This document shows, one piece after another, positions 897 to 14,714 of a DNA stretch of 32,496 nt; the stretch's first letter is position 1, and each line of letters begins with the position of its first letter. The position numbers and the translations under genes were made by a program. The notes under the pieces are model-generated. The model saw nothing but the letters and a program-made list of their open reading frames with translations, had not been told where the DNA came from and did not search any database. Source of the DNA: an uncultured Aminicenantes bacterium (GTDB lineage Bacteria; Acidobacteriota; Aminicenantia; UBA2199); contig CBDAFS010000051.1 in NCBI GenBank assembly GCA_965195285.1, positions 1 to 32,496 on the forward strand, written 5' to 3'.

Positions 897-2147
897 ATGA
901 AAATGCTGAAAAGTAAAGAGCGGAGAGATACTTTCCTGTTGATCACCATGGGGGTTATCTTTATCCTCTTTCTGGTTTACCTGTTTGTCCCCCTGGGCAA
1001 AAAGAGCCCGGAACCGGTTGAAACCGGAACCAAACCGCCTGAGAATAAAAAAAAGAAACCGGTCAATATGTCGAATATCTCCCCCATCACCGGGGGTGTT
1101 TTGGCCGGGTTCAATGGAAGAATTGAAGCTGAACTGGAGGGTGTCCTGGATTTCCTGAAACAATCCCCCCGGCCCTTTCAGAATTATCCGGTTGATGGTT
1201 TGAAATCAGTTCTTTTTTCGGCTGAGGATCAAACCGATACGGACCAGGACCTGTCGCCACTGTTTGAGGTCATCCAAAAAGTACAGCGGATTAATTTTTA
1301 TGATCTCAAGGATATATTTGAATTTGATTTCCCGGAAGGTGTTGACCAAACCCTGATATTCAATTTGTATACTGGCCTGTTCATGCTTAAACTCAGGGAG
1401 GGAAAGCTCATCCGGGAGATCACTGAGTTTCCGGATACCATGTTCAAGAGAATCGTCAATTGCTGGCCTTACCTGCAGATCAACAATGAGATCGAGAAGG
1501 ATTTTCAATCGCTACCGGTTTTGTTTTATTTTTATATGCTGCTTCAGCGGCTGGATATTTTTCCTGCCACCGATGTGGCGGCTTTCTTAAAGGAGAGGAT
1601 CGGTGATATCAGGGATTTATCACCGGGGAAATTGATCGACCAAATCGGTAACTATTTGGGTTTTTCCCGGGATCCCCAGATCTACCGGATGAGCTGGACC
1701 GAGGAAGATTATTTGAATCCCGACGATCATGGAAGCTACGCCAATTTGAAAATAAATACCTATGTTTTTCTGCGCCAGAAATATCTGGTATTCCCGGATT
1801 TTCAAAATACCAAAAACAATAAATGGATCAGGGATTTGAAAAAATCAGATTCCGGGGATATCGAGCTGATCGATTTTCAGCTCTCCGATGAAGATCCGGT
1901 CAAAAACATTCAGATTCAAACCATTTATTATGCGCCGGGAAAGTCCCAATTCATTATCCTCTTGGATCGGCATGATTTTACCGATCAGTCCGGATTTCTG
2001 GGGCGGTTAATCCATCAGCGTTTGCTGGAGGTTCAGCAGTATTTTCTGAGTGTTGATTTTACTTCCCGCTTCAATGCTCCCGGGTCTTTCAAAACAGGGC
2101 TTTTGAATTTCGGGTGTTTTTTAAAAAAGCAGGTTCCGGTCAAATAG
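897..2147 (+). CDS. Hypothetical single-pass membrane-anchored protein
   Basis: 416-aa ORF; basic N-terminus, one hydrophobic helix (FLLITMGVIFILFLVYLFVPL), Pro/Lys linker; no family motif recognised. Confidence 0.7.
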   Translation: MKMLKSKERRDTFLLITMGVIFILFLVYLFVPLGKKSPEPVETGTKPPENKKKKPVNMSNISPITGGVLAGFNGRIEAELEGVLDFLKQSPRPFQNYPVDGLKSVLFSAEDQTDTDQDLSPLFEVIQKVQRINFYDLKDIFEFDFPEGVDQTLIFNLYTGLFMLKLREGKLIREITEFPDTMFKRIVNCWPYLQINNEIEKDFQSLPVLFYFYMLLQRLDIFPATDVAAFLKERIGDIRDLSPGKLIDQIGNYLGFSRDPQIYRMSWTEEDYLNPDDHGSYANLKINTYVFLRQKYLVFPDFQNTKNNKWIRDLKKSDSGDIELIDFQLSDEDPVKNIQIQTIYYAPGKSQFIILLDRHDFTDQSGFLGRLIHQRLLEVQQYFLSVDFTSRFNAPGSFKTGLLNFGCFLKKQVPVK

Positions 2148-2688
2148 TCAGCCGTTCTTTGAAGGGGAGAAAGGTCATAAAGTCGGCATGATGTACGATA
2201 TAAGCTTCGGTTGAACGTTTAACCAGGTCCCCCTCTTTGGCATGGGTGGCAATGATGTGGCAGACTTCCGGGGGGATCTCGCAGGTTTCGGCCAGGCTGA
2301 CACCGGAAAAGGGATGACGGAGATATTTGCCGTAGTTTCCCTGAATCACCTGCCCATCCTGTTTTTCATATTCCAGCAGTTTTCCCACATCTGCCAGTAT
2401 AGCTCCTGCGATTAAAACATTCATGTTGACCGGCAGTTCATTCTTGAAAAAACGGTTCACGGTCTCGCCACTGGCCTTGGAAATATGAACCACGGCTCTT
2501 TTATGATCCATGAAACTGACCTTGATATTTTTTACCAGCAGGGTAAAGGGCATGACCCGGAGGTCATCAGCGTTCAATGCGCTCTTTCCCAGGGCCAGGC
2601 TCCAGGTTTTTGCGGTATTTTCTCTCAAGGTTTCGTCCTTGATCCAATCCAGTTCCGGCCATAATGCGCTAACTTCTTTGTCTATCAT
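2140..2688 (-). CDS. HD/HDIG-superfamily phosphohydrolase-like protein with HD changed to AD
   Basis: H...GAILADVGK...RHPFSG...IIATH...VHHAD pattern; SD AAGGAG upstream. Confidence 0.75.
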   Translation of the reverse strand: MIDKEVSALWPELDWIKDETLRENTAKTWSLALGKSALNADDLRVMPFTLLVKNIKVSFMDHKRAVVHISKASGETVNRFFKNELPVNMNVLIAGAILADVGKLLEYEKQDGQVIQGNYGKYLRHPFSGVSLAETCEIPPEVCHIIATHAKEGDLVKRSTEAYIVHHADFMTFLPFKERLTI

Positions 2689-2790
2689 GTTTTGCTCCTT
2701 GTTATTACCATTTTATAAAATTTCCGCAGGCTTGTAAAGTAATTGAATTGGGTGATGGGTTGTGGTATTTTTATCAGTGCAGGAGGCAAT

Positions 2791-5169
2791 ATGAGAATCC
2801 GATTATCCGTTTTTTTGATCACCATTATGGCAGGCGTTTTTCTGGGGGCCGATTATGAAGTCACCCGGGTGGATTTCCTGTCAGAATACCGACTTGAGGT
2901 GAATGGAGCCGGCCCTCTGCTGGTCAAGTCAGATCCGATCAGAAATAAAATCATTGTGGCCCATACCTATACTTCTTCTGTCTCCTTGATTGACGGCCGG
3001 GATCATTCGGTGCTGAATATACCCATCCGGAGCCGGATCCCCCAGTATCTGAAAGATGAGGCACTGCAAATAGATTCTGCCACCGGCCATATATACCTGA
3101 TTGGAAACCGCTGCCTTCATGTGGTGATCCCGGAGAAAAAAAAGGCAATCACCATTCCCACCAATGATCAGTTTGAAATGGTTGCTATCAATGAGGCCAG
3201 CGGAGATGCCTGTCTGGTGGGAAGATCCAGCCGTAACCTGGTCCTTGTGTCGCTTAAAACCGGAAAAATCAGGACCCTTGCATGGCTGTCTCACCGGGAA
3301 ACCATGGTGAACCTGAATCAGACCCCTCCACCCCCCATTCGCAAGGTGGTCTGGGACCGGAAATCGAATAGCTGGGTGGCGATTGACGGATTCAGTGCCA
3401 GGCTGTTTGTATTCTCCTCTTCCGGGAGGATTTTAAAGGAGAGGAAACTGAAGGTAAAGCCGGGAGTCCGCTGGCATTTTGCGGCATACAATCAAAACAA
3501 CCACTGTCTGTATCTGGTCATCGAAACGGATAAAAGAAAAGTGGTTGAAGCAGTCAAGATAGATATTCGCCGGGGCCGGGATCTGGCTGTAACCCTGCCC
3601 GAATTCAGTGAAGCGGTGGGGATAAACTATAACTCCCATTTGGATGAAGTTTATATTCCCTATGACAATCATCCCAGTGTTCACGTGGTTTCTTTCCGGC
3701 AGGGAGGAAAGGTCAGTGAGATCAAAATACCGGCCTATGGCAATGATGCCTCTGCCATTGATCTGGATAACCAGAAGTTGTTTGTATCCAGCTGGGCCTA
3801 TGGAGAAATCAATGTGCTGGACCTGGGCCAGAGAAAATTAACCAAAAGAATACGGAATCTGGGTATTATTCCCCATATGTTCAGCATGAGTTTTAATCCG
3901 GCCAACCAAAACTTATATATTCCCATTGGGGCCACAGCGGTAAACGGTTCTTTCGGAGCTGCTGTCACCTGCCTGGATACCCGGACCTTTAAAACCAGGA
4001 AAGTGTATACCGGCTGGGCGCCGGTGGATTCAGTGGCCCTGAAAAACCGGGATGGCGTTCTGGTCTTTAATTCCGAGGATTCTTTTGCCGAAGTGCAGCC
4101 GGATGGGAGCTCCCGATTTTTAAGGCTTCCCTGCGATTATCCCGGCCGGGTCGTTACCCTGCCGGACGGCTATATCTGTCTGGCCTATGGTCCCCATCAA
4201 GCTTACTGGCCGGTGGTTTATATCTGGGGGGCCAAGAATGGAATCCTGGGTATCCACCCGGAGACTTTTGAATTCTACGACCGCCGGATCCCCAGGCTGG
4301 CCCAACAGATAGCAGTGGACAGATCAGGGGTTTTGTATGCTCTACAGAACAACTGGGGCCGGGAAAAACAGTTTGTCATTTCCCTTCCCGATGCCATCCG
4401 AAGTCCCAACCAGGGAGATATGCGCTGGGAACTGGATGACATGGTTGTCCGGGAAACCACCCAGAGAATATTGAAATATGATTCCGATCACCACTGGCTG
4501 TATATGGTGAGGGTAGGTGAGAGGGATGATGAAGCCGGTGTCCTGCAAGTCCTGGATCTGAATAGCCGGAAGGTTTTGTTCAGATGCCCGGTGGGATTGA
4601 CTCCGGTTGGTCTTGCTTTCAACCGTAAACGGATTGCGGTCGGTAATTTTGATAGCAACAGCATTACAGTGGTGAATAAAGCCGATTTCAGCATCACCCG
4701 ACTGGAAACCGGAGAAAAACCACTGGATTTGATTTACCGGGGGGATGAATTGGTGGTGATCAATCACCAGGAAAGGACCCTGCAGTTTCCGGGTGGGGAT
4801 TCAGTCAAGTATCCCCTGCCGGGGCCGGGAAGACCGGATGGCCTGTTTGATTCCGGCAAAGAACTGATCCTTACTTCACACAGTTCCGATCGGTTGCAAA
4901 TCCACTCATTTTCGGTTCAGAGCCGGACCTTTCATTTAATCCATGAAGAGCGGTATCCCTATGGTGAAACCAGTTTTGATACCAATAATACGGCCTTTTT
5001 TGTGAGGGGGCAATTTGGAGATGGTCTGTTCAGGATCAATCGAATCTTACAGGACAGCCAGGGCTGTTTGTGGATCAGCGATTTTCTTTCCGGAAAACTT
5101 TTTATCATAAAACCAGAATCTGTGGTCTGCCCGGGGCAGGGTTCGGGTAAAGGTGAATCCGGATATTGA
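2791..5169 (+). CDS. Secreted multi-blade beta-propeller protein (YncE/YVTN-like)
   Basis: Start moved from TTG 2743 to ATG 2791: SD AGGAGG at about 2781, TTGAAT-17-TATTTT promoter at 2743-2771, signal peptide MRIRLSVFLITIMAGVFLGA. Repeats such as VGLTPVGLAF..IAVGNFDSNSITVVN and TGEKPLDL. Confidence 0.7.
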   Translation: MRIRLSVFLITIMAGVFLGADYEVTRVDFLSEYRLEVNGAGPLLVKSDPIRNKIIVAHTYTSSVSLIDGRDHSVLNIPIRSRIPQYLKDEALQIDSATGHIYLIGNRCLHVVIPEKKKAITIPTNDQFEMVAINEASGDACLVGRSSRNLVLVSLKTGKIRTLAWLSHRETMVNLNQTPPPPIRKVVWDRKSNSWVAIDGFSARLFVFSSSGRILKERKLKVKPGVRWHFAAYNQNNHCLYLVIETDKRKVVEAVKIDIRRGRDLAVTLPEFSEAVGINYNSHLDEVYIPYDNHPSVHVVSFRQGGKVSEIKIPAYGNDASAIDLDNQKLFVSSWAYGEINVLDLGQRKLTKRIRNLGIIPHMFSMSFNPANQNLYIPIGATAVNGSFGAAVTCLDTRTFKTRKVYTGWAPVDSVALKNRDGVLVFNSEDSFAEVQPDGSSRFLRLPCDYPGRVVTLPDGYICLAYGPHQAYWPVVYIWGAKNGILGIHPETFEFYDRRIPRLAQQIAVDRSGVLYALQNNWGREKQFVISLPDAIRSPNQGDMRWELDDMVVRETTQRILKYDSDHHWLYMVRVGERDDEAGVLQVLDLNSRKVLFRCPVGLTPVGLAFNRKRIAVGNFDSNSITVVNKADFSITRLETGEKPLDLIYRGDELVVINHQERTLQFPGGDSVKYPLPGPGRPDGLFDSGKELILTSHSSDRLQIHSFSVQSRTFHLIHEERYPYGETSFDTNNTAFFVRGQFGDGLFRINRILQDSQGCLWISDFLSGKLFIIKPESVVCPGQGSGKGESGY

Positions 5170-5223: not shown

Positions 5224-5751
5224 ATGTTTGCAATTCTCGAAACAGGCGGAAAACAGTACAAAGTTGAAGAAGGCGATATCATCGAAGTGGAACATATTGA
5301 TGAAAATATGATATCCAAGGAGAACCAGGTTAACTTTAAGGAAGTACTGCTGATCAGGAATAACGATCTGTATCTGGGGCAACCTTATGTAGAAAATGGT
5401 AAAATAGAGGCCAGGATTCTGGAAGCATTTAAATCGCCCAAGATCATCATTTTTAAGAAAAAATCAAAAAAGGGATACAAGCGGACCCAGGGTCACCGGC
5501 AGATGCTACACCGCTTAAAAATAGAAAAAATTGAGATTGGCAAGTCCACCGGGCCGAAAGAAACGACAGCGGCACCGAAACATGAGATCAAAACCAGGGC
5601 CAAAAACGGTACTGCAAAACCTTCCAAAACCGGTCCCGCGGTCAAAAAAGTTGTCTCGCCGGCCCCGAAAAAATCCTCAGCCAAGACAGCTCCGAAAAAA
5701 CCCGCACCCCCGAAAAAACCGCCTGCCGCTAAAGGTAAGGAGAAGAAATAA
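5224..5751 (+). CDS. rplU: 50S ribosomal protein L21 with Lys/Ala/Pro-rich C-terminal tail
   Basis: [18 protein letters not shown]...[21 protein letters not shown]. Confidence 0.97.
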
Positions 5752-6002
5752 TGGCACACAAAAAATCAGCCGGAAGTGCTCGAAATGGACGCGACAGCGC
5801 CTCCAAGCGATTGGGGGTAAAGAAGTATGGTGGCGAACAGATTAGTGCCGGTGCGATCATTATCAGACAGCGGGGAACCAAATTCAATCCGGGCAAAAAT
5901 GTGGGCAGGGGAAGGGATGATACACTCTTTGCCCTGATTTCGGGTAATGTCAGATTTTTACAACGCAAAAACAAACGGTTTGTGGAGATTGAACCCAAAT
6001 AG
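5751..6002 (+). CDS. rpmA: 50S ribosomal protein L27
   Basis: [24 protein letters not shown]...[23 protein letters not shown]. Confidence 0.98.
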
Positions 6003-6120
6003 TTTTTTGTTTTTCAAGCCAGTTCCCTCTCATTCCCGTTTTGGTCCAAAGCTATCAATAACTGAATTCCTTGAATATAAAGAAGCCGTTTCCTTCAGGG
6101 CTATCGGTAAATTTTAATCG

Positions 6121-7122
6121 ATGTTTGTTGACAGGGCTGTGGTAACCTTTATAGCCGGTGATGGCGGTAATGGCTGTATCAGTTTCCGCCGGGAAAAATT
6201 TGTCCCTAAAGGCGGACCCGATGGAGGTGACGGCGGAGATGGCGGCAGTATCATTTTGATCAGCAAATCGGGAAAACATTCGCTGGTGGACTTTAAATTT
6301 CGGAATATTGTCAGATCTCCCAAAGGCAGACATGGAAGCGGAGCAAAAAAGAGTGGGAAAAATGGTCAAAATGAAATCCTGCCTGTCCCGGACGGCACAG
6401 TGGTTAAAACCTATCCGGATGAAAAATTGATATTTGATTTTGACCGGGAAGCCATTGAATGGGAAGTGGCCCGTGGTGGTAAGGGGGGGCGGGGGAATAT
6501 CCATTTCAAGTCTGCACGCCATCAAACCCCCCGGATCGCCGAACCCGGTGGCAAGGGAGAAACCATAAAGGTGATCCTGGAATTGAAATTGATTGCCTTT
6601 GCCGGACTGGTCGGGCTTCCCAATGCCGGCAAATCTACCCTGATTTCAAAACTCAGTGCTGCTAAACCCAAAATCGCCGATTACCCCTTTACGACTCTAA
6701 TTCCCCATCTCGGGGTGGTTTATAATGGCTATAACAGCCTGGTGATGGCCGATATCCCGGGGATCATTAAAGGCGCCCACCTGGGTGAAGGTATGGGACA
6801 GGATTTTCTGAGACACATCGAGAGAAATAAATTGCTGGTTTTTTTGATTGACCTGTCAGTGGATTCATCCCCTTCACCGCTGGAGACATTTGAAGTCCTT
6901 CGAAATGAACTGAAGTTGTATAAAACCAGTTTAACCGCTAAAAAATTCATGGTGGTGGGCAATAAGATCGACCTGGTCGCTGAGAAAAGCAGGGAGCGCG
7001 TTGATGAATTGAAAAAGTTTTGCAGGCAGATCAAAATCGATTATGTTGAGGTTTCGGCACTGAAGGGTATTAACCTGGATAGCCTCAAAAAAATGATATT
7101 CGGATACTTTCATGAAAAATAA
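6121..7122 (+). CDS. obgE: GTPase ObgE/CgtA, short form without C-terminal extension
   Basis: Gly-rich Obg fold (FRREKFVPKGGPDGGDGG), G1 GLPNAGKS, G2 YPFTT, G3 DIPG, G4 NKID, G5 SA. Confidence 0.97.
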   Translation: MFVDRAVVTFIAGDGGNGCISFRREKFVPKGGPDGGDGGDGGSIILISKSGKHSLVDFKFRNIVRSPKGRHGSGAKKSGKNGQNEILPVPDGTVVKTYPDEKLIFDFDREAIEWEVARGGKGGRGNIHFKSARHQTPRIAEPGGKGETIKVILELKLIAFAGLVGLPNAGKSTLISKLSAAKPKIADYPFTTLIPHLGVVYNGYNSLVMADIPGIIKGAHLGEGMGQDFLRHIERNKLLVFLIDLSVDSSPSPLETFEVLRNELKLYKTSLTAKKFMVVGNKIDLVAEKSRERVDELKKFCRQIKIDYVEVSALKGINLDSLKKMIFGYFHEK

Positions 7123-7753
7123 AATTGGATTATTGGGGGGAACATTCAATCCGGTTCATAACGGGCATATTGAAATCGGTCTGAAGGTTTTAGAGGCCTT
7201 TGATCTGGAACAGATTCTGTATGTCCTGTCGGCAAACCCGCCGCATAAGCAAAGTATTGTCCGCACACCGGCCCGAATCCGTTGGAAAATGCTGGATCGT
7301 GCCCTGGCTCCATTTCCCGGGTTAGTTCCCTGTGATGTTGAAATGAAGCGATCAAGACCGTCCTGGACCATTAAAACCATTCAGATATTGAAAAAAGCCT
7401 ATCCTGAGAAATTGTTTTACTTCATTTCGGGCAGTGAGGGCTTTCTGAAAATCAAAACCTGGAAGAACTACCGCCAACTTCTGCAGTCGGTCTTTTTTAT
7501 TGTACTGTTGAGGAAACTTCCTCATCTCCAGAAAGTGCAGGATTTGCTGATGGCAGAAGATATTCCCTGCTGTCTCAATGCCGAATTCACCCTTGATTTA
7601 CCGGGTGTCTATATTTATGCCTATGAATCTCCACAACTCCAGTTGTCCTCAACCCGGATTCGGAAACGGATCCGCTTAAACCAGCCGGTTGTTCAATTGG
7701 TACCGGAGGAGATCATGAAAATCATAGAGGAGAATAATTTGTATGGATCTTAA
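7112..7753 (+). CDS. nadD: Nicotinate-nucleotide adenylyltransferase
   Basis: GGTFNPVHNGH (HxGH), PPHK, SSTRIR; lies between obgE and rsfS. Confidence 0.93.
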   Translation: MKNKIGLLGGTFNPVHNGHIEIGLKVLEAFDLEQILYVLSANPPHKQSIVRTPARIRWKMLDRALAPFPGLVPCDVEMKRSRPSWTIKTIQILKKAYPEKLFYFISGSEGFLKIKTWKNYRQLLQSVFFIVLLRKLPHLQKVQDLLMAEDIPCCLNAEFTLDLPGVYIYAYESPQLQLSSTRIRKRIRLNQPVVQLVPEEIMKIIEENNLYGS

Positions 7754-8138
7754 CGATTATAAGTTTATCACCGCGGATTTGAAAAAGCGCAAGATCCCCC
7801 CGGTAATCAAACGCGTGGTTTCAATTATTCTGGATAAGAAGGGTGAAAAAACCATTGTATTGAAATTGAAGGGGATAAGTGATATAACTGACTTTATGGT
7901 TATTTGCAACGGGAACTCATCAAGCCAGAACAAAGCCATATCCGATGAGGTCCAGAAACAGTTAAGAAAAGAATACAACCGGAAAGCCTTCGGCGTTGAA
8001 GGGGAAAACAATACCGATTGGATCCTTCTGGATTACATCGATTTTGTAATTCATGTTTTTTCTCCGGAAAACAGAGAAAAATATTCTCTGGAAAAATTAT
8101 GGATGGATGGAAAGAAATATTATTTTTACCGGGATTAA
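7743..8138 (+). CDS. rsfS: Ribosome silencing factor RsfS (Iojap)
   Basis: DKKG, TDFMVICNG, EG...WILLDY.DFVIHVF..E.R..Y.LEKLW. Confidence 0.95.
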   Translation: MDLNDYKFITADLKKRKIPPVIKRVVSIILDKKGEKTIVLKLKGISDITDFMVICNGNSSSQNKAISDEVQKQLRKEYNRKAFGVEGENNTDWILLDYIDFVIHVFSPENREKYSLEKLWMDGKKYYFYRD

Positions 8139-9027
8139 CAATTTAAAAGATCAGAAATCCCTGGGGGTTAAAAAAAAGATTGAAAAAATCGCTGACCTGT
8201 CCACCAATGTGCTGATTTTCGGCGAAACCGGTGTGGGTAAGGATTTTTGGGTTTACTATCTGTCTGAATTCAGTCATTTCAACAACATCCTGAATTTACA
8301 TTGCGGTGATGTTCCGGAAACCCTGCTGGAGAGTGAGTGGTTTGGATACAGGCGCGGCGCCTTTACCGGGGCCAACCGGAATTATGAAGGCAAATGGAAG
8401 CAGGCCGGGGAGGGAATCTTATTTTTAAACCAGATCGATTTGTTGAGCCTCAACTTGCAGTCCCGGCTGTTGAGGATCATTGAGAGAAAAAAATATTTCC
8501 CTCTGGGTTCAAACCGTGAAACCGATATCCCAGCCCGATTTGTTTTTTCAGCCGATGAGGACATCGAAGATAAAGTCAGGAGGGGTGAATTCCGCCAGGA
8601 CCTGTTTTTCAGGATATCATCCTACAAAATCCATGTCCCGCCCCTTAGAGAGAGAAAGAACGATATCCTCCCTCTGGTCTTGTTTTTTGCCAGAAGGGCG
8701 GGGTTGCAGATCAATATTAGCTCTGAAGGCATGAAAAACCTCAAATCATACCGCTGGATTGGCAATATCCGGGAAATTGAAAATTTTATCCACAACCTGT
8801 CTGTGGTCGGATCAAAACTGGATGACGAAGGTATTTACAGCCTGCATCGGCATTCTGGCGATTTGCTGGAGAGCGTGAAGATTTCCGATATGTCTCTATC
8901 TGAAATGGAAAAGGAGTATATTTTATTCCTGTTAAAGAAATACCGCAGCAAGGTAAGGGTGGCCGATATACTGAAGATTTCCAGAAAATCCCTGTACAAT
9001 AAATTGAAAAAATATGAGAATGATTGA
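8107..9027 (+). CDS. Sigma54-interacting AAA+/Fis-HTH regulator with no sensory domain and a degenerate Walker B
   Basis: GETGVGKD (Walker A), ESEWFG..RGAFTGA, FLNQID (Walker B), FRQDLFFRI, PPLRER, WIGNIREIEN, C-terminal ADILKISRKSLYNKLKKY. Start is likely ATG 8107 rather than 8053. Confidence 0.9.
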   Translation: MERNIIFTGINNLKDQKSLGVKKKIEKIADLSTNVLIFGETGVGKDFWVYYLSEFSHFNNILNLHCGDVPETLLESEWFGYRRGAFTGANRNYEGKWKQAGEGILFLNQIDLLSLNLQSRLLRIIERKKYFPLGSNRETDIPARFVFSADEDIEDKVRRGEFRQDLFFRISSYKIHVPPLRERKNDILPLVLFFARRAGLQINISSEGMKNLKSYRWIGNIREIENFIHNLSVVGSKLDDEGIYSLHRHSGDLLESVKISDMSLSEMEKEYILFLLKKYRSKVRVADILKISRKSLYNKLKKYEND

Positions 9028-9478
9028 GCTGCTCTGTATCGGAGGTCTTAAATTCAAGGAATTAAAGCCAGTTGAACAACAATTCGTTAAGCGGATTAAT
9101 GGGTTTTTTAAATTTACCCTCACCCAGCTGAAAGATATCGGCTTAACGGATGAACGTCGGGTTAAAGAAAAAGAGGCAGAAAAGATTCAAAAACATCTGA
9201 ACCGTGATGATTTTGTCGTTGGTCTTGATGAAAGGGGCAAACAGATGAGTTCTACCGATTTTGCCGGATTCTTATCCCGTGAAATTACCCGGGCCCGGGG
9301 CCGTATCGTTTTTTTAATCGGGGGATTTTCCGGCTTATCTTCGGTTCTGGATGAACATATAGATTTGAAATTATCCTTTTCCAGAATGACCTTTTCCCAT
9401 GATATTTTCAGGATTGTTTTTCTGGAGCAACTCTACCGGGCCATGACTATTCTGAAAGGGATCACCTATCACCGCTGA
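9014..9478 (+). CDS. rlmH: 23S rRNA pseudouridine-1915 N3-methyltransferase
   Basis: LDERGKQMSS, FLIGG, LSFSRMTFSH, EQLYRA, C-terminal YHR. Confidence 0.93.
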   Translation: MRMIELLCIGGLKFKELKPVEQQFVKRINGFFKFTLTQLKDIGLTDERRVKEKEAEKIQKHLNRDDFVVGLDERGKQMSSTDFAGFLSREITRARGRIVFLIGGFSGLSSVLDEHIDLKLSFSRMTFSHDIFRIVFLEQLYRAMTILKGITYHR

Positions 9479-11168: not shown

Positions 11169-12383
11169 ATGAGAAGTTTGGATGAGTACCTTCCCATTGT
11201 GGGAGAGGAGGTTATTGGAAACATTTTCCAACGGGCTCATCGCTTGGTGAACAAACATATTGTCCACATCAATTCCACAGCCCATGGTGGAGGTGTAGCC
11301 GAAATACTGAATAGCTTGATTGTTTTGTTGAATGATATTGGAATTGATTCAGGTTGGAGAGTTCTAATAGGGCCTTCGGATTTTTTTGTGGTTACCAAGA
11401 AGTTCCACAATGCCTTACAGGGTCAACCTATAAATTTAACCAATAATAAAAAAAATCTTTATATGGAAACCAACGAAAGATTTTCCCATTTTACACATCT
11501 GGACCACGATTGCGTTATTATCCATGATCCCCAACCCCTTCCTTTGATTAAGTTTGAAAAAAAGAGACAACCCTGGATCTGGAGATGTCATATTGATATA
11601 ACCAATCCCAATAGAAAGCTTTGGGAATATATCAAATCATTTGTTCTCCGTTATGATATCATGATTATTTCAAGTAAAGCTTTTAGAAAAGATGATCTTC
11701 CCCTGGAACAGAGAATCATCCACCCTTCCATTGATCCTCTTTCCCATAAAAACATGGATTTGTCAGACGAGACTATTTTAAAAACTCTGAAAAAATTTTC
11801 AATTCCTTTGGATAAGCCCATTATTACTCAGGTTTCCCGTTTTGATCCCTGGAAAGACCCAGAAGGTGTATTAAAAGTGTATGAGTTGGTTAAAGAGAAG
11901 GTAGACTGCCGTCTAATTTTTTGCTATAACATGGCTCCAGACGATCCAGAAGGTATCAAGGTATACAATAAAATGGCAAAAAGAGCCGCAAAACATCTGA
12001 ATTCCGGAGATGTTCTGTTTGTCCTGGGTGACAATCAAATTCTTGTGAATGCTTTACAGAGGAAATCCGATGTTGTTCTTCAGAAATCAACCCGGGAAGG
12101 ATTTGGACTGACTGTTTCTGAGGCCTCATGGAAAGGTGTTCCGGTTGTCGCTTCAAAAATCGGAGGGATTCCAGAACAGATTATTAATAATGAAACAGGA
12201 TTCCTGGTGGAACCCACTGATTTTTCAGGATATGCTGAGAAGATAATCACTCTATTAAAAGATAATAAATTTGCTAAAGATATGGGTAAAAAGGGAAAAG
12301 AGTTCATCAGAAAGAACTTTTTGATTACTCGTCATATTGGTGATTATTTAGATCTGTTAATAGATATACTGAATAATTATTAA
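11169..12383 (+). CDS. treT: Trehalose synthase TreT-like glycosyltransferase (GT4)
   Basis: HINSTAHGGGVAEIL, TKKFHNALQG, IHDPQP, WRCHID, QVSRFDPWKDP, DDPEG, QKSTREGFGLTVSEA. Confidence 0.88.
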   Translation: MRSLDEYLPIVGEEVIGNIFQRAHRLVNKHIVHINSTAHGGGVAEILNSLIVLLNDIGIDSGWRVLIGPSDFFVVTKKFHNALQGQPINLTNNKKNLYMETNERFSHFTHLDHDCVIIHDPQPLPLIKFEKKRQPWIWRCHIDITNPNRKLWEYIKSFVLRYDIMIISSKAFRKDDLPLEQRIIHPSIDPLSHKNMDLSDETILKTLKKFSIPLDKPIITQVSRFDPWKDPEGVLKVYELVKEKVDCRLIFCYNMAPDDPEGIKVYNKMAKRAAKHLNSGDVLFVLGDNQILVNALQRKSDVVLQKSTREGFGLTVSEASWKGVPVVASKIGGIPEQIINNETGFLVEPTDFSGYAEKIITLLKDNKFAKDMGKKGKEFIRKNFLITRHIGDYLDLLIDILNNY

Positions 12384-12506
12384 CCTATAATTTATTTATA
12401 GGAGTAAAAATCATGAATTCCTAGAATTATAATTACTGACCATATTTGATGGTTTGACATTCTGGTTCATTTTGATATATTTATAGAGAGGGGATGATAC
12501 AAGCTA

Positions 12507-14714
12507 ATGGTACAAAATAAACGTCAGAAAAAAAAATTTTATATCATTTCCAACCGTCTTCCAATTTCTGTCAGGAGAAAAAAAGAGCAATTCAGTATTC
12601 AGCAAAGCCCGGGTGGATTGGCAACCGGACTCCGGATGATTACTCAAAAAGAAGACCTATATTTAATCGGATGGCCAGGATTATGGCCCTATAATGAAAA
12701 CGAAAAAGAAGACATAAAGAGCATGTTAAAAGAGCACCACTGCCATCCTGTCTTTCTCTCTCCTCCTGATTTAGAAAAGTATTATTATGGATTTACCAAC
12801 AAGGCCCTCTGGCCTCTTTTTCATTATTTTCCAACCTATTGTTCATTTGAAGAATCAGAATGGGAAGCTTATAGAAGAGTGAATCAAAAATTTTTTAAAG
12901 AAGTCTCAAAATTGGCTGGTCCAGAAGATATTTTTTGGATTCATGATTACCATCTTATGCTTCTTCCCTCTTTATTGAGGGAAAAATTTCCCCGAAGTTC
13001 TATTGGTTTTTTTCTCCACATACCATTTCCATCCTCTGAGGTGTTTCGCATATTACCCTGGCGAAAAGAAATTCTCGAAGGCCTTCTTGGTGCTGATTTA
13101 ATAGGTTTTCACACCTATGAATATGCACGACACTTTTTAAGTAGCGTTTTACGACTTTTAGATATTGAGCATGATTTGGGATCGATTTCAGTAGATAACA
13201 GGATTGTTAAAGTGGAAAACTTTCCTATGGGGATTGATTTTGAGAGTTTTGAAAAAATTCTCGAACAGACCTCGATTCAAAGAGATATTAAGAAACTTCA
13301 AGAAGAAACTAAAGCAGAAGAGAGAAAGATTATACTTTCTGTTGACCGTTTGGACTACTCCAAAGGAATACCACAGAGATTAAAGGGTATTGAGCTTTTC
13401 TTGGAAACAAATCCCCAATGGCATAAAAAGCTTATATATATTATGCTCTGTGTCCCTTCCAGGACAAAGGTGAAACATTATTCTCTGCTCAAAGAAGAAG
13501 TGGATGGTCTAGTGGGGAAGATTAATGGTCGTTTTGGAAGTCCAAGCTGGATTCCCATCCACTATATGTATCGTTCACTCCCTTTTAATAAACTTGTACC
13601 ATTATATTACATGGCTGATGTTGCTCTGGTTACGCCTTTACGCGACGGTATGAATCTGGTTGCCAAGGAGTTTGTAGCCTCAAAAAAAGAAAAGAAAGGT
13701 GTGTTGATTCTTAGTGAGACTGCAGGTGCTGCTTCTGAATTAGGAGAAGCCTTACTTGTAAATGTGAATAATAAAGAAGATATAGCAGAAGCTTTGTCTC
13801 AAGCTCTGAATATGAGTGAAGAAGAACAGAAGTCAAGAATGGAATTAATGAGGAAGCGACTTTTTAATTATGATATATTCAAATGGACAAAAAGCTTTAT
13901 TAAAAGACTCGAAGAGGTAAAAAAAATTCAAGCCCGACGTGAGCACTGGAAACTTAACAGTAAGTGGCAAAAGAAGCTTATTTTGGATTATAAAAAAAGT
14001 AAAAAAAGACTCTTACTGTTAGATTATGACGGCACTCTTATTTCTTTTACTCAAAAACCTGATCAGGCGCAACCGGATAAAGAGTTGATAAGGCTTCTTC
14101 TAACTTTGTCCCAAAATGCTTACAATAAGGTGGTTATCATCAGCGGACGTGACAGTTCAACCTTGCAAAAATGGCTGGGAAAGATTCCTTGTGCTCTAAT
14201 TGCAGAACACGGTGCAATGATTAAAAATGGTCCTGATCAGGATTGGAAGAAACAAAAGGACTTCTCAACTGAGTGGAAGGATCAAATCAAGTCAATTTTG
14301 AATACTTATTCCCTCCATGTTCCCGGTTCTTTTGTGGAAGAAAAGGATTATGGAATTGCCTGGCATTACCGAAGGGCCAATCCAGATTTGGGTCAATTGA
14401 GGTCAAGCGAATTGTTTGAATATCTTAGTGAATTTTTGGCTAATACAGACTTACAGGTCATGCATGGAAATAAAGTTATTGAAGTAAGGGTAGCAGGTAT
14501 TAATAAGGGAGAGGCTTCAAAATATTTTTTAGGTTTGAAACCTTTGGACTTTATCCTTGCTTTAGGTGATGATTGGACAGATGAGGATATCTTTAAAATT
14601 TTACCACCGTCTGCCTATTCAATCAAAGTAGGTTTTAAAACAACCCATGCTCGATTCTACATAGAATCTCCTGAAGTCTGTCGAAATCTCCTGCGTGAAT
14701 TAATGAATGCCTAA
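12507..14714 (+). CDS. Bifunctional trehalose-6-phosphate synthase/phosphatase (OtsA-OtsB fusion)
   Basis: [48 protein letters not shown] (GT20); [26 protein letters not shown] (HAD phosphatase). Own TTGACA/TATATT promoter at 12454-12481. Confidence 0.95.

Follow-up and report, generated by a model that had tools for sequence, protein, structure and literature searches.

A conserved sigma-54-activator-type gene linked to rsfS in Aminicenantes, with Asn-Gln in place of the Walker B Asp-Glu

The sigma-54 activators of the textbooks all run as motors on ATP, and to stop one, laboratories mutate the glutamate of its Walker B motif. Gene X, which lies between rsfS and rlmH in a 32,496-nt stretch of DNA from an uncultured Aminicenantes bacterium (contig CBDAFS010000051.1; the window, in what follows), raises the question of what such a protein is for when nature has made the change. 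Its 306-residue product (to whose translation residue numbers refer) is a sensor-less protein of the sigma-54-activator type in which Asn108-Gln109 stand where Asp-Glu are expected. Judged by its sequence, gene X is a real and conserved gene, a variant of the atypical enhancer-binding proteins (EBPs), that keeps its nucleotide-binding residues, both trans-acting Arg fingers, the GAFTGA loop and a Fis-type helix-turn-helix (HTH); by analogy, its product is likely to exert its control through binding and not through motor action. Literature searches in one paper collection (on sigma-54 in Aminicenantes and Acidobacteria, on RsfS-RlmH and on EBPs with degenerate Walker B motifs) turned up no description of this gene.

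Conservation of the Walker B amide pair

The pair was followed through the window's own GTDB family, coded f1 (other f-numbers are coded GTDB families of Acidobacteriota), in which the records of close relatives are labelled Candidatus Aminicenantes. Gene X and the best 120 of 4588 database matches, which are 297-320 residues long and 59-96% identical to it (those that carry a name are labelled Aminicenantes or Acidobacteriota), make up a set of 121 family proteins. Position 108 is Asn in 112 of these and Asp in 9; position 109 is Gln in 112, Arg in 6, and Lys, Gly and Asn in one each, and is Glu in none. Asp111, two residues past Gln109, is present in all 121. Among the 35 distinct genes for which DNA is at hand, Asn-Gln is spelled AAC-CAG (16 genes), AAT-CAG (7) or AAT-CAA (5), and the remainder encode Asp-Gln (2), Asn-Asn (3), Asn-Arg (1) and Asn-His (1), with no Glu codon anywhere. 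The ratio of nonsynonymous to synonymous substitution rates (dN/dS), computed against one relative, the sole one with unsaturated synonymous sites, is 0.133 for gene X, 0.125 for rsfS, 0.138 for nadD, 0.212 for obg (over 171 codons) and 0.225 for rlmH. The absence of Glu from 121 proteins, the three codon pairs, which amount to synonymous turnover at both positions, and a dN/dS of 0.13 like that of rsfS are the grounds for concluding that the pair, as far as sequence can tell, is held by purifying selection and is not decaying. The suggestion of a first-pass annotation of this DNA, that two acid-to-amide changes in an otherwise preserved protein had been selected, is thereby borne out. Its proposed survey of homologues also takes in the GAFTGA loop, which is exact in 114 of the 121 proteins and falls within the most conserved block of the protein; the HTH is strongly conserved as well. 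The sequences accordingly place the ATP-binding residues, the Arg fingers, the sigma-54 loop and the HTH under strong constraint.

Gene X is present in 61 of the 65 other genomes of the family, which together with the window's own makes 62 matches. Where it is missing, one contig stops inside rsfS, and the three other genomes (60-71% complete) are also without an RsfS match.

Translation, Pfam and residue alignment to the solved chains of NtrC1 confirm the open reading frame (ORF), the motifs and their coordinates as first annotated, including the Asn-Gln at Walker B and the FSAD of sensor I (Table 1). A longer frame opens at 8053; the ATG at 8107 is preferred as the start because all 120 best homologues have lengths in the 297-320 range and because this ATG sits at a junction that is conserved in the family. 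Pfam assigns residues 16-176 to Sigma54_activat (PF00158; 2.1e-44, 151.6 bits, the Pfam cut-off being 20.2) and residues 181-234 to AAA_lid_14 (PF25601). With the AAA+ domain starting at residue 16 and no Pfam match N-terminal of it, the sensory or receiver domain that had been reported absent is indeed absent. The AlphaFold2 model (pLDDT 87.6) finds its best Foldseek match in NtrC1 (1ny5; rmsd 1.6 across 244 columns), and PDB entry 4qnm, which is PspF E108Q, is among the further fold matches.

Table 1. Gene X, its motifs and the adjoining genes, in window coordinates; n = 121 for family counts
Feature	Position	Strand	Assignment and basis
Gene X	8107..9027	+	306-aa sensor-less sigma-54-activator-type protein (AAA+ domain, lid, Fis-type HTH); stop-free translation, Pfam, AlphaFold2, Foldseek
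Walker A GETGVGKD (Lys45)	8221..8244	+	Alignment to NtrC1 (GESGVGKE); Lys in 120/121
"Glutamate switch" position, His65	8299..8301	+	Aligned with NtrC1; PspF N64 = Asn; family N 105, H 13, G 2, Y 1
GAFTGA loop (L1, sigma-54 contact), residues 84-89	8356..8373	+	Identical in NtrC1; exact in 114/121
Walker B ILFLNQ, Asn108-Gln109 replacing Asp-Glu	8416..8433	+	AAC CAG at 8428-8433; LFLNQI against LFLDEI in NtrC1
Sensor I region FSAD (Asp150)	8545..8556	+	Canonical and NtrC1 form AATN; Asp in 105/121
Arg-finger motif FRQDLFFR (Arg163, Arg169)	8590..8613	+	NtrC1 FREDLYYR; each Arg in 121/121
Sensor II GNIRE (Arg222)	8761..8775	+	NtrC1 GNVRE; Arg in 121/121
Fis-type HTH, HTH_8 (PF02954), residues 264-303	8896..9015	+	Pfam 6.7e-08
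rsfS (ribosome silencing factor)	7743..8138	+	Pfam RsfS 1.1e-31; last 32 nt shared with gene X
rlmH (SPOUT methyltransferase)	9014..9478	+	Pfam SPOUT_MTase 1e-42; 14-nt overlap with the end of gene X
Upstream cluster: rplU (5224), rpmA (5751), obg (6121), nadD (7112)	5224..7753	+	ORFs and Pfam

The activator-type gene behind rsfS in Acidobacteriota

The amide pair might have been a lineage-specific invention in an otherwise ordinary protein; a wider survey of the phylum disposes of this notion. In the 11 other families of the class (85 genomes), RsfS was located in 83, and the DNA downstream was read and searched with the window proteins. In 19 of these 83, rsfS and rlmH are separated by a short gene of the activator type; the 19 comprise all genomes of f2 (5), f4 (4), f5 (3) and f6 (7). 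None was found in the 64 genomes of the remaining seven families, in 59 of which rlmH comes after rsfS, although some of the stretches end with the contig. RsfS itself was found in all 121 genomes sampled across the phylum, of which two, flagged as unpublished, enter this tally only. Of the 121, 111 lie outside the class; the rsfS loci of 100 of these 111 (48 families) were read, and a short activator gene stands directly behind rsfS in 41 loci and in 20 of the 48 families, followed by rlmH in 29 of the 41.

The resulting 60 rsfS-linked genes outside f1 (19 and 41) retain Asp-Glu at Walker B in 18 cases and have lost the Glu in 42, which read Asp-Gly (9), Asp-Leu (6), Asp-Arg (5), Asp-Met (5), Ser-Ser (5), Asp-His (2), Asp-Gln (1), Asp-Asp (1) and Glu-Asn (1), with Gly or Ser in seven others. 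The Walker A Lys and the sensor II Arg are each kept in 59 of the 60, and position 4 of GAFTGA is Thr or Ser in every one. The Arg fingers have been lost in 15 of the 42 Glu-less genes, as against none of the 18 with Asp-Glu. The Glu state requires a minimum of five changes among 58 rsfS-linked rows of a 94-row tree, and of four on a more careful tree of 46 rows; on that account the rsfS-linked gene looks, from its sequences, to have been ancestrally canonical, to have given up its catalytic Glu several times, and to have lost its Arg fingers later in some lineages. By the same motifs, nucleotide binding and the core of the L1 loop appear to have survived in every lineage, and the pattern is what dropping hydrolysis while retaining nucleotide binding and the L1 loop would be expected to leave.

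A profile search of 1.84 billion representatives yielded 94,529 proteins at 1e-30 or better, in which the rsfS-linked genes are not separated from generic activators. Among its best representatives, five long proteins (P0130, P0135, P0140, P0150 and P0151) contain two or three sigma-54 interaction domains, one of which has a degenerate Walker B (Asp-Gln, Asp-Gly, Glu-Asn or Asn-Gly) but a GAFTGA-like loop; judged by sequence, each resembles a naturally occurring covalent pairing of a live domain with a dead one.

That the f1 gene is orthologous to the other rsfS-linked genes is likely by its position, by its start-codon junction and by the careful tree. Sequence identity is of no help here: gene X is 28-34% identical to the other rsfS-linked genes of the class and no less, at 31-38%, to generic activators. 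The careful tree is a hand-picked subset of one or two rows per family from which the long rows f57, f61 and f63 were excluded. In it, 17 generic and paralogous rows form a 96/96 clade that excludes f1, which is left in an unresolved base with f4+f5 and f2+f6. (The 16 rows entered as generic were picked from Asp-Glu matches, and their Asp-Glu state is therefore no test.) Signature columns split two against one, which does not decide the matter. The ATG of gene X consists of bases 2-3 of the Asp codon in the RsfS motif LWMDG and of the base that follows, and the identical junction (RsfS motif LW[MG]D[AG]K) is found in all 10 of the other f1 loci that were checked, in 4 of 4 from f4, 3 of 3 from f5 and 2 of 7 from f6. 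Its being shared by f1, f4, f5 and part of f6 speaks for a common origin.

Within the family the survey of loci bears out that gene X is fixed in the rsfS slot, and the ORF coordinates reproduce the overlaps with rsfS and rlmH that had been pointed out. The order rplU-rpmA-obg-nadD is kept upstream in all 15 related loci that reach that side; 14 extend to rplU, and the remaining one, L023, contains only the end of nadD. On the other side rlmH comes after gene X in 12 of 16 related loci (and in the window is itself succeeded by a gene for Xaa-Pro aminopeptidase), whereas in four close relatives (L022, L023, L024 and L033) gene X closes the cluster and unrelated ORFs follow, partly on the opposite strand, with no rlmH. 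The constant link of gene X is therefore with rsfS and not with rlmH. Short contigs from RNA libraries of three studies match pieces of gene X (8851-9004, 8212-8401 and 8306-8507), although contigs cannot prove transcription or co-transcription. In genome G138 (L035/L103) rlmH matches that of the window at 92% identity over its first 101 codons (dS 0.38), and on the same contig gene X, rsfS, nadD and obg reach only 62-76%, their dS being saturated. The difference could come from recombination, or from chimeric assembly of the contig, at the border between gene X and rlmH. Elsewhere in the window, the ORFs at 897-2147 (+), 2140-2688 (-) and 2743-5169 (+), of 416, 182 and 808 residues, have no Pfam match at 1e-4, and the last of these stops 54 nt upstream of rplU on the same strand. 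Downstream of the cluster, 11169-14714 (+) holds two adjacent routes of trehalose synthesis, a TreT-type synthase and a 735-residue OtsA-OtsB fusion.

Sigma-54 and the proposed mode of action

The genome has the polymerase subunit that an activator of this type would need. A search for rpoN, which the first-pass annotation had recommended, locates it on contig C53, complete with its activator-interacting (AID), core-binding (CBD) and DNA-binding (DBD) domains. There are, besides gene X, 11 full-length sigma-54 activators, all with Asp-Glu, and gene X is the lowest-scoring of these 12 PF00158 matches (the others score 193-247 bits). Because rpoN is nearly universal in the class (144 of 151 genomes, and all 102 of the good ones), its presence does not separate carriers of the rsfS-linked gene from the rest. 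The DNA-binding domain of sigma-54 scores ~160-181 bits in nearly all full-length f1 matches, as compared with ~178-215 in the other 11 families of the class, which suggests from sequence that the sigma-54 of the Asn-Gln lineage has itself diverged to an unusual degree. In the window's genome (G000) a ribosome hibernation factor gene (Pfam Ribosomal_S30AE; C53:19571-19840, L314) begins ~10 nt past rpoN, whose ORF ends at ~C53:19560. With rpoN beside a hibernation factor and gene X beside rsfS, sigma-54 and an activator-type gene both adjoin ribosome-silencing genes here; the linkage of rpoN with hpf is common in other bacteria.

The nearest published analogue, an engineered protein, provides the model for its proposed action. 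Passages of PMC4132715 describe PspF E108Q as retaining <1% of its ATPase activity and binding ATP 30-fold more tightly, as a hexamer whatever the nucleotide, and as entering an ATP-dependent, GAFTGA-dependent intermediate complex with sigma-54 polymerase; its activity peaks at ~0.02 mM ATP, and at low ATP it activates transcription on duplex DNA. In that light the label "hydrolysis-dead", which the product of gene X had been given at first pass, is overstated. The interpretation advanced here, which by analogy we hold to have about an even chance of being correct, is that X is an ATP-binding, very poorly hydrolysing regulator that engages sigma-54 polymerase as PspF E108Q does. X would be made together with RsfS by translational coupling, would bind ATP and hydrolyse it very poorly, and would assemble at its DNA sites as a stable ATP-bound oligomer that engages sigma-54 RNA polymerase via GAFTGA. 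Its output would then be set by the level of ATP and by the amount made from a ribosome-maintenance operon and not by a sensor domain. As to the net effect, we lean towards weak, binding-driven activation over the holding of polymerase in an unproductive complex, because the gene's orthologues elsewhere occupy this slot as canonical activators.

A number of facts weigh against this interpretation, which for every member of the group argues from sequence and analogy. Gene X has changed Asp to Asn in addition to the Glu change that PspF E108Q carries by itself, and its binding of Mg-ATP may be weakened in consequence. The window contains no -24/-12 sigma-54 consensus at 10 or more of 11 bases; it has only weak 8-9-base matches, none of them in the intergenic stretches around the operon. 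Sigma-54 motifs occur at 0.39-1.19 per 10 kb in 90 rsfS-linked loci as compared with 0.88 in 59 loci without the gene, at no fixed position, and the genome-wide count of 29 compares with ~27 by a rough chance estimate, a scan that has little power. The Arg fingers are gone in the sister families f2, f5 and f6, and the Phe of GAFTGA is gone in f30, so that a function common to the clade may need neither rings nor sigma-54. In the quick 94-row tree f1 sits on a long stem (1.16) among the generic activators, with support 90, and an approximately unbiased (AU) test on the 46-row subset does not reject the grouping of f1 with generics (p 0.708). Finally, the gene X of one genome among the 62, G090 (C93:86854-87750, locus L115), carries an in-frame TGA, the sign perhaps of a sequencing error, of a pseudogene or of recoding.

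This last case is what can be said for regarding the Asn-Gln pair as decay or sequencing error in a dying gene, a proposition with virtually no chance of being right: it is ruled out by an intact frame and the same motifs in 121 proteins from many assemblies, by the codon pairs and by the dN/dS of gene X, and the RNA-library contig that spans 8306-8507, which comes from another study, has 7 differences, none at 8428-8433. Asp-Glu or random residues in orthologues, taken at first pass as the mark of such decay, are indeed to be seen in distant orthologues, but not in close ones. It is also rather improbable that X is still a working ATPase, and so an ordinary, always-on activator, in which Asp150 of sensor I or Asp111 has become the substitute catalytic acid. 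Asp111 is universal in the family and Asp150 is present in most members, and within the class f1 and f4, the only two families to keep their Arg fingers, each carry an Asp in sensor I. Nevertheless, the other Glu-less lineages with Arg fingers (f21, f41, f43 and f33) have Gln, Ser, Thr or Asn there, and, although no search was aimed at this point, no activator of this protein family is known to us whose catalytic acid has moved. In PspF, moreover, the isosteric E108Q change alone suffices for the fall in ATPase described above (PMC4132715, in part).

Two further explanations accept a loss of hydrolysis. X may act independently of sigma-54, as an "atypical" EBP that is either a nucleotide- and DNA-binding repressor or an activator of the sigma-70 type and uses its AAA+ domain only for oligomerising; we regard this as unlikely, while granting it a definite minority share of belief. 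There is precedent in VpsR, with its Asn-Asp Walker B and sigma-70 promoters, alongside which TyrR, HupR, HsfA, PhhR and NtrX are listed (passages of PMC6158489), and in the NtrC of R. capsulatus, which requires the binding of ATP and not its hydrolysis (bioRxiv 10.1101/2023.06.06.543975, in the part cited). The stepwise loss of Arg fingers and GAFTGA residues in sister lineages and the lack of a sigma-54 promoter near gene X point the same way. The atypical EBPs named in those passages all have GAFTGA altered or deleted, however; the family of X has it exact in all but seven of its 121 members and both Arg fingers invariant. Alternatively, X might not act alone but enter, as a non-hydrolysing subunit that tunes or poisons them, the rings of certain activators among the genome's other 11. 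Only a slender chance can be given to this: X has a strongly conserved HTH, which suggests that it binds DNA sites in its own right, and no partner can be named. In its favour, PspF rings with alternating defective subunits retain partial function (passages of PMC4132715), and among the best 150 representatives of the profile search are natural proteins of two domains, one with a canonical Walker B and the other with a degenerate one.

The catalytic Glu of one positionally defined gene has been removed by nature repeatedly across a phylum, with the ATP-binding residues and the sigma-54 loop kept. This provides a ready-made series, from Asp-Glu through Asn-Gln, Asp-Gln, Asp-Gly and Asp-Arg forms with Arg fingers to forms without them, with which one could explore what ATP binding by itself achieves at sigma-54 promoters in vivo. 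The fixed link with rsfS, in parallel with that of rpoN and hpf in this genome, suggests that in slow-growing and mostly uncultured bacteria sigma-54 control and ribosome silencing are tied in a way not yet described. Elaborated into a physiological scheme, to which we attach little probability, X and its Glu-less relatives would be natural "E108Q-type" activators whose ATP site is their sensor: they would hold ATP tightly, and when ATP is scarce, binding alone would switch on sigma-54 promoters, and when it is plentiful the activators would inhibit themselves. Made in fixed proportion to RsfS, they would together with it make up a starvation module, one in which the shutdown of ribosomes is tied to a sigma-54 programme and in which X is perhaps acted on in trans by RsfS or the free 50S subunit, as PspF is by PspA. 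Modelling of a complex of X with RsfS gave a score of 0.00 and no answer, which says nothing for or against binding.

Comparison with known systems

Like PspF E108Q of E. coli, X is a sensor-less protein consisting of an AAA+ domain and an HTH, with Gln for the catalytic Glu and with GAFTGA, Arg fingers and sensor II intact; unlike it, X is natural and conserved, and is changed at the first Walker B acid as well. The "glutamate switch" Asn of PspF is kept in most of the family, although the X of the window has His. X is not thereby a PspF: it scores 168.9 bits against the NCBIfam PspF model, the cut-off of which is 443.55, and reaches no equivalog cut-off among the 25 NCBIfam families listed. 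Neither a pspA-type neighbour nor a divergent sigma-54 operon accompanies it; it sits instead in the series rplU-rpmA-obg-nadD-rsfS-X-rlmH. What X does have in common with the PspF/HrpRS group is the lack of an N-terminal sensor or receiver domain; members of that group have no regulatory domain and are controlled by a protein in trans (passages of PMC7175178).

The atypical EBPs (VpsR, TyrR, PhhR, HupR, HsfA, NtrX and the NtrC proteins of R. capsulatus and Caulobacter) are, as the parts of the sources cited describe them, also proteins of the sigma-54-activator fold with a non-consensus Walker B, Asn-Asp in the case of VpsR, and for some of them regulation requires no hydrolysis (PMC6158489; bioRxiv 10.1101/2023.06.06.543975). 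They differ from X in that GAFTGA is lost or altered, that they work at sigma-70 promoters and that most have a receiver or sensor domain; X retains GAFTGA and has no such domain.

The canonical rsfS-linked activators of other Acidobacteriota occupy the same slot behind rsfS as X and share its size class (~310-350 residues) and order of domains. These are the 18 of 60 with Asp-Glu, mostly with Asn at sensor I, and X is only 28-39% identical to them. Among solved structures the best match in both sequence and fold is NtrC1 of Aquifex aeolicus, which is 34% identical to X and agrees with it motif for motif and column for column, but which has a receiver domain and an Asp-Glu Walker B; its E239A mutant was reportedly made to trap ATP. 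X thus has the features of a canonical EBP (PF00158, GAFTGA, the Walker A Lys, the Arg fingers, the sensor II Arg and an rpoN in the genome) but not the hhhhDE of Walker B. Classified by its sequence, it is neither a canonical activator, by reason of its Walker B, nor an atypical EBP, by reason of the GAFTGA that it keeps.

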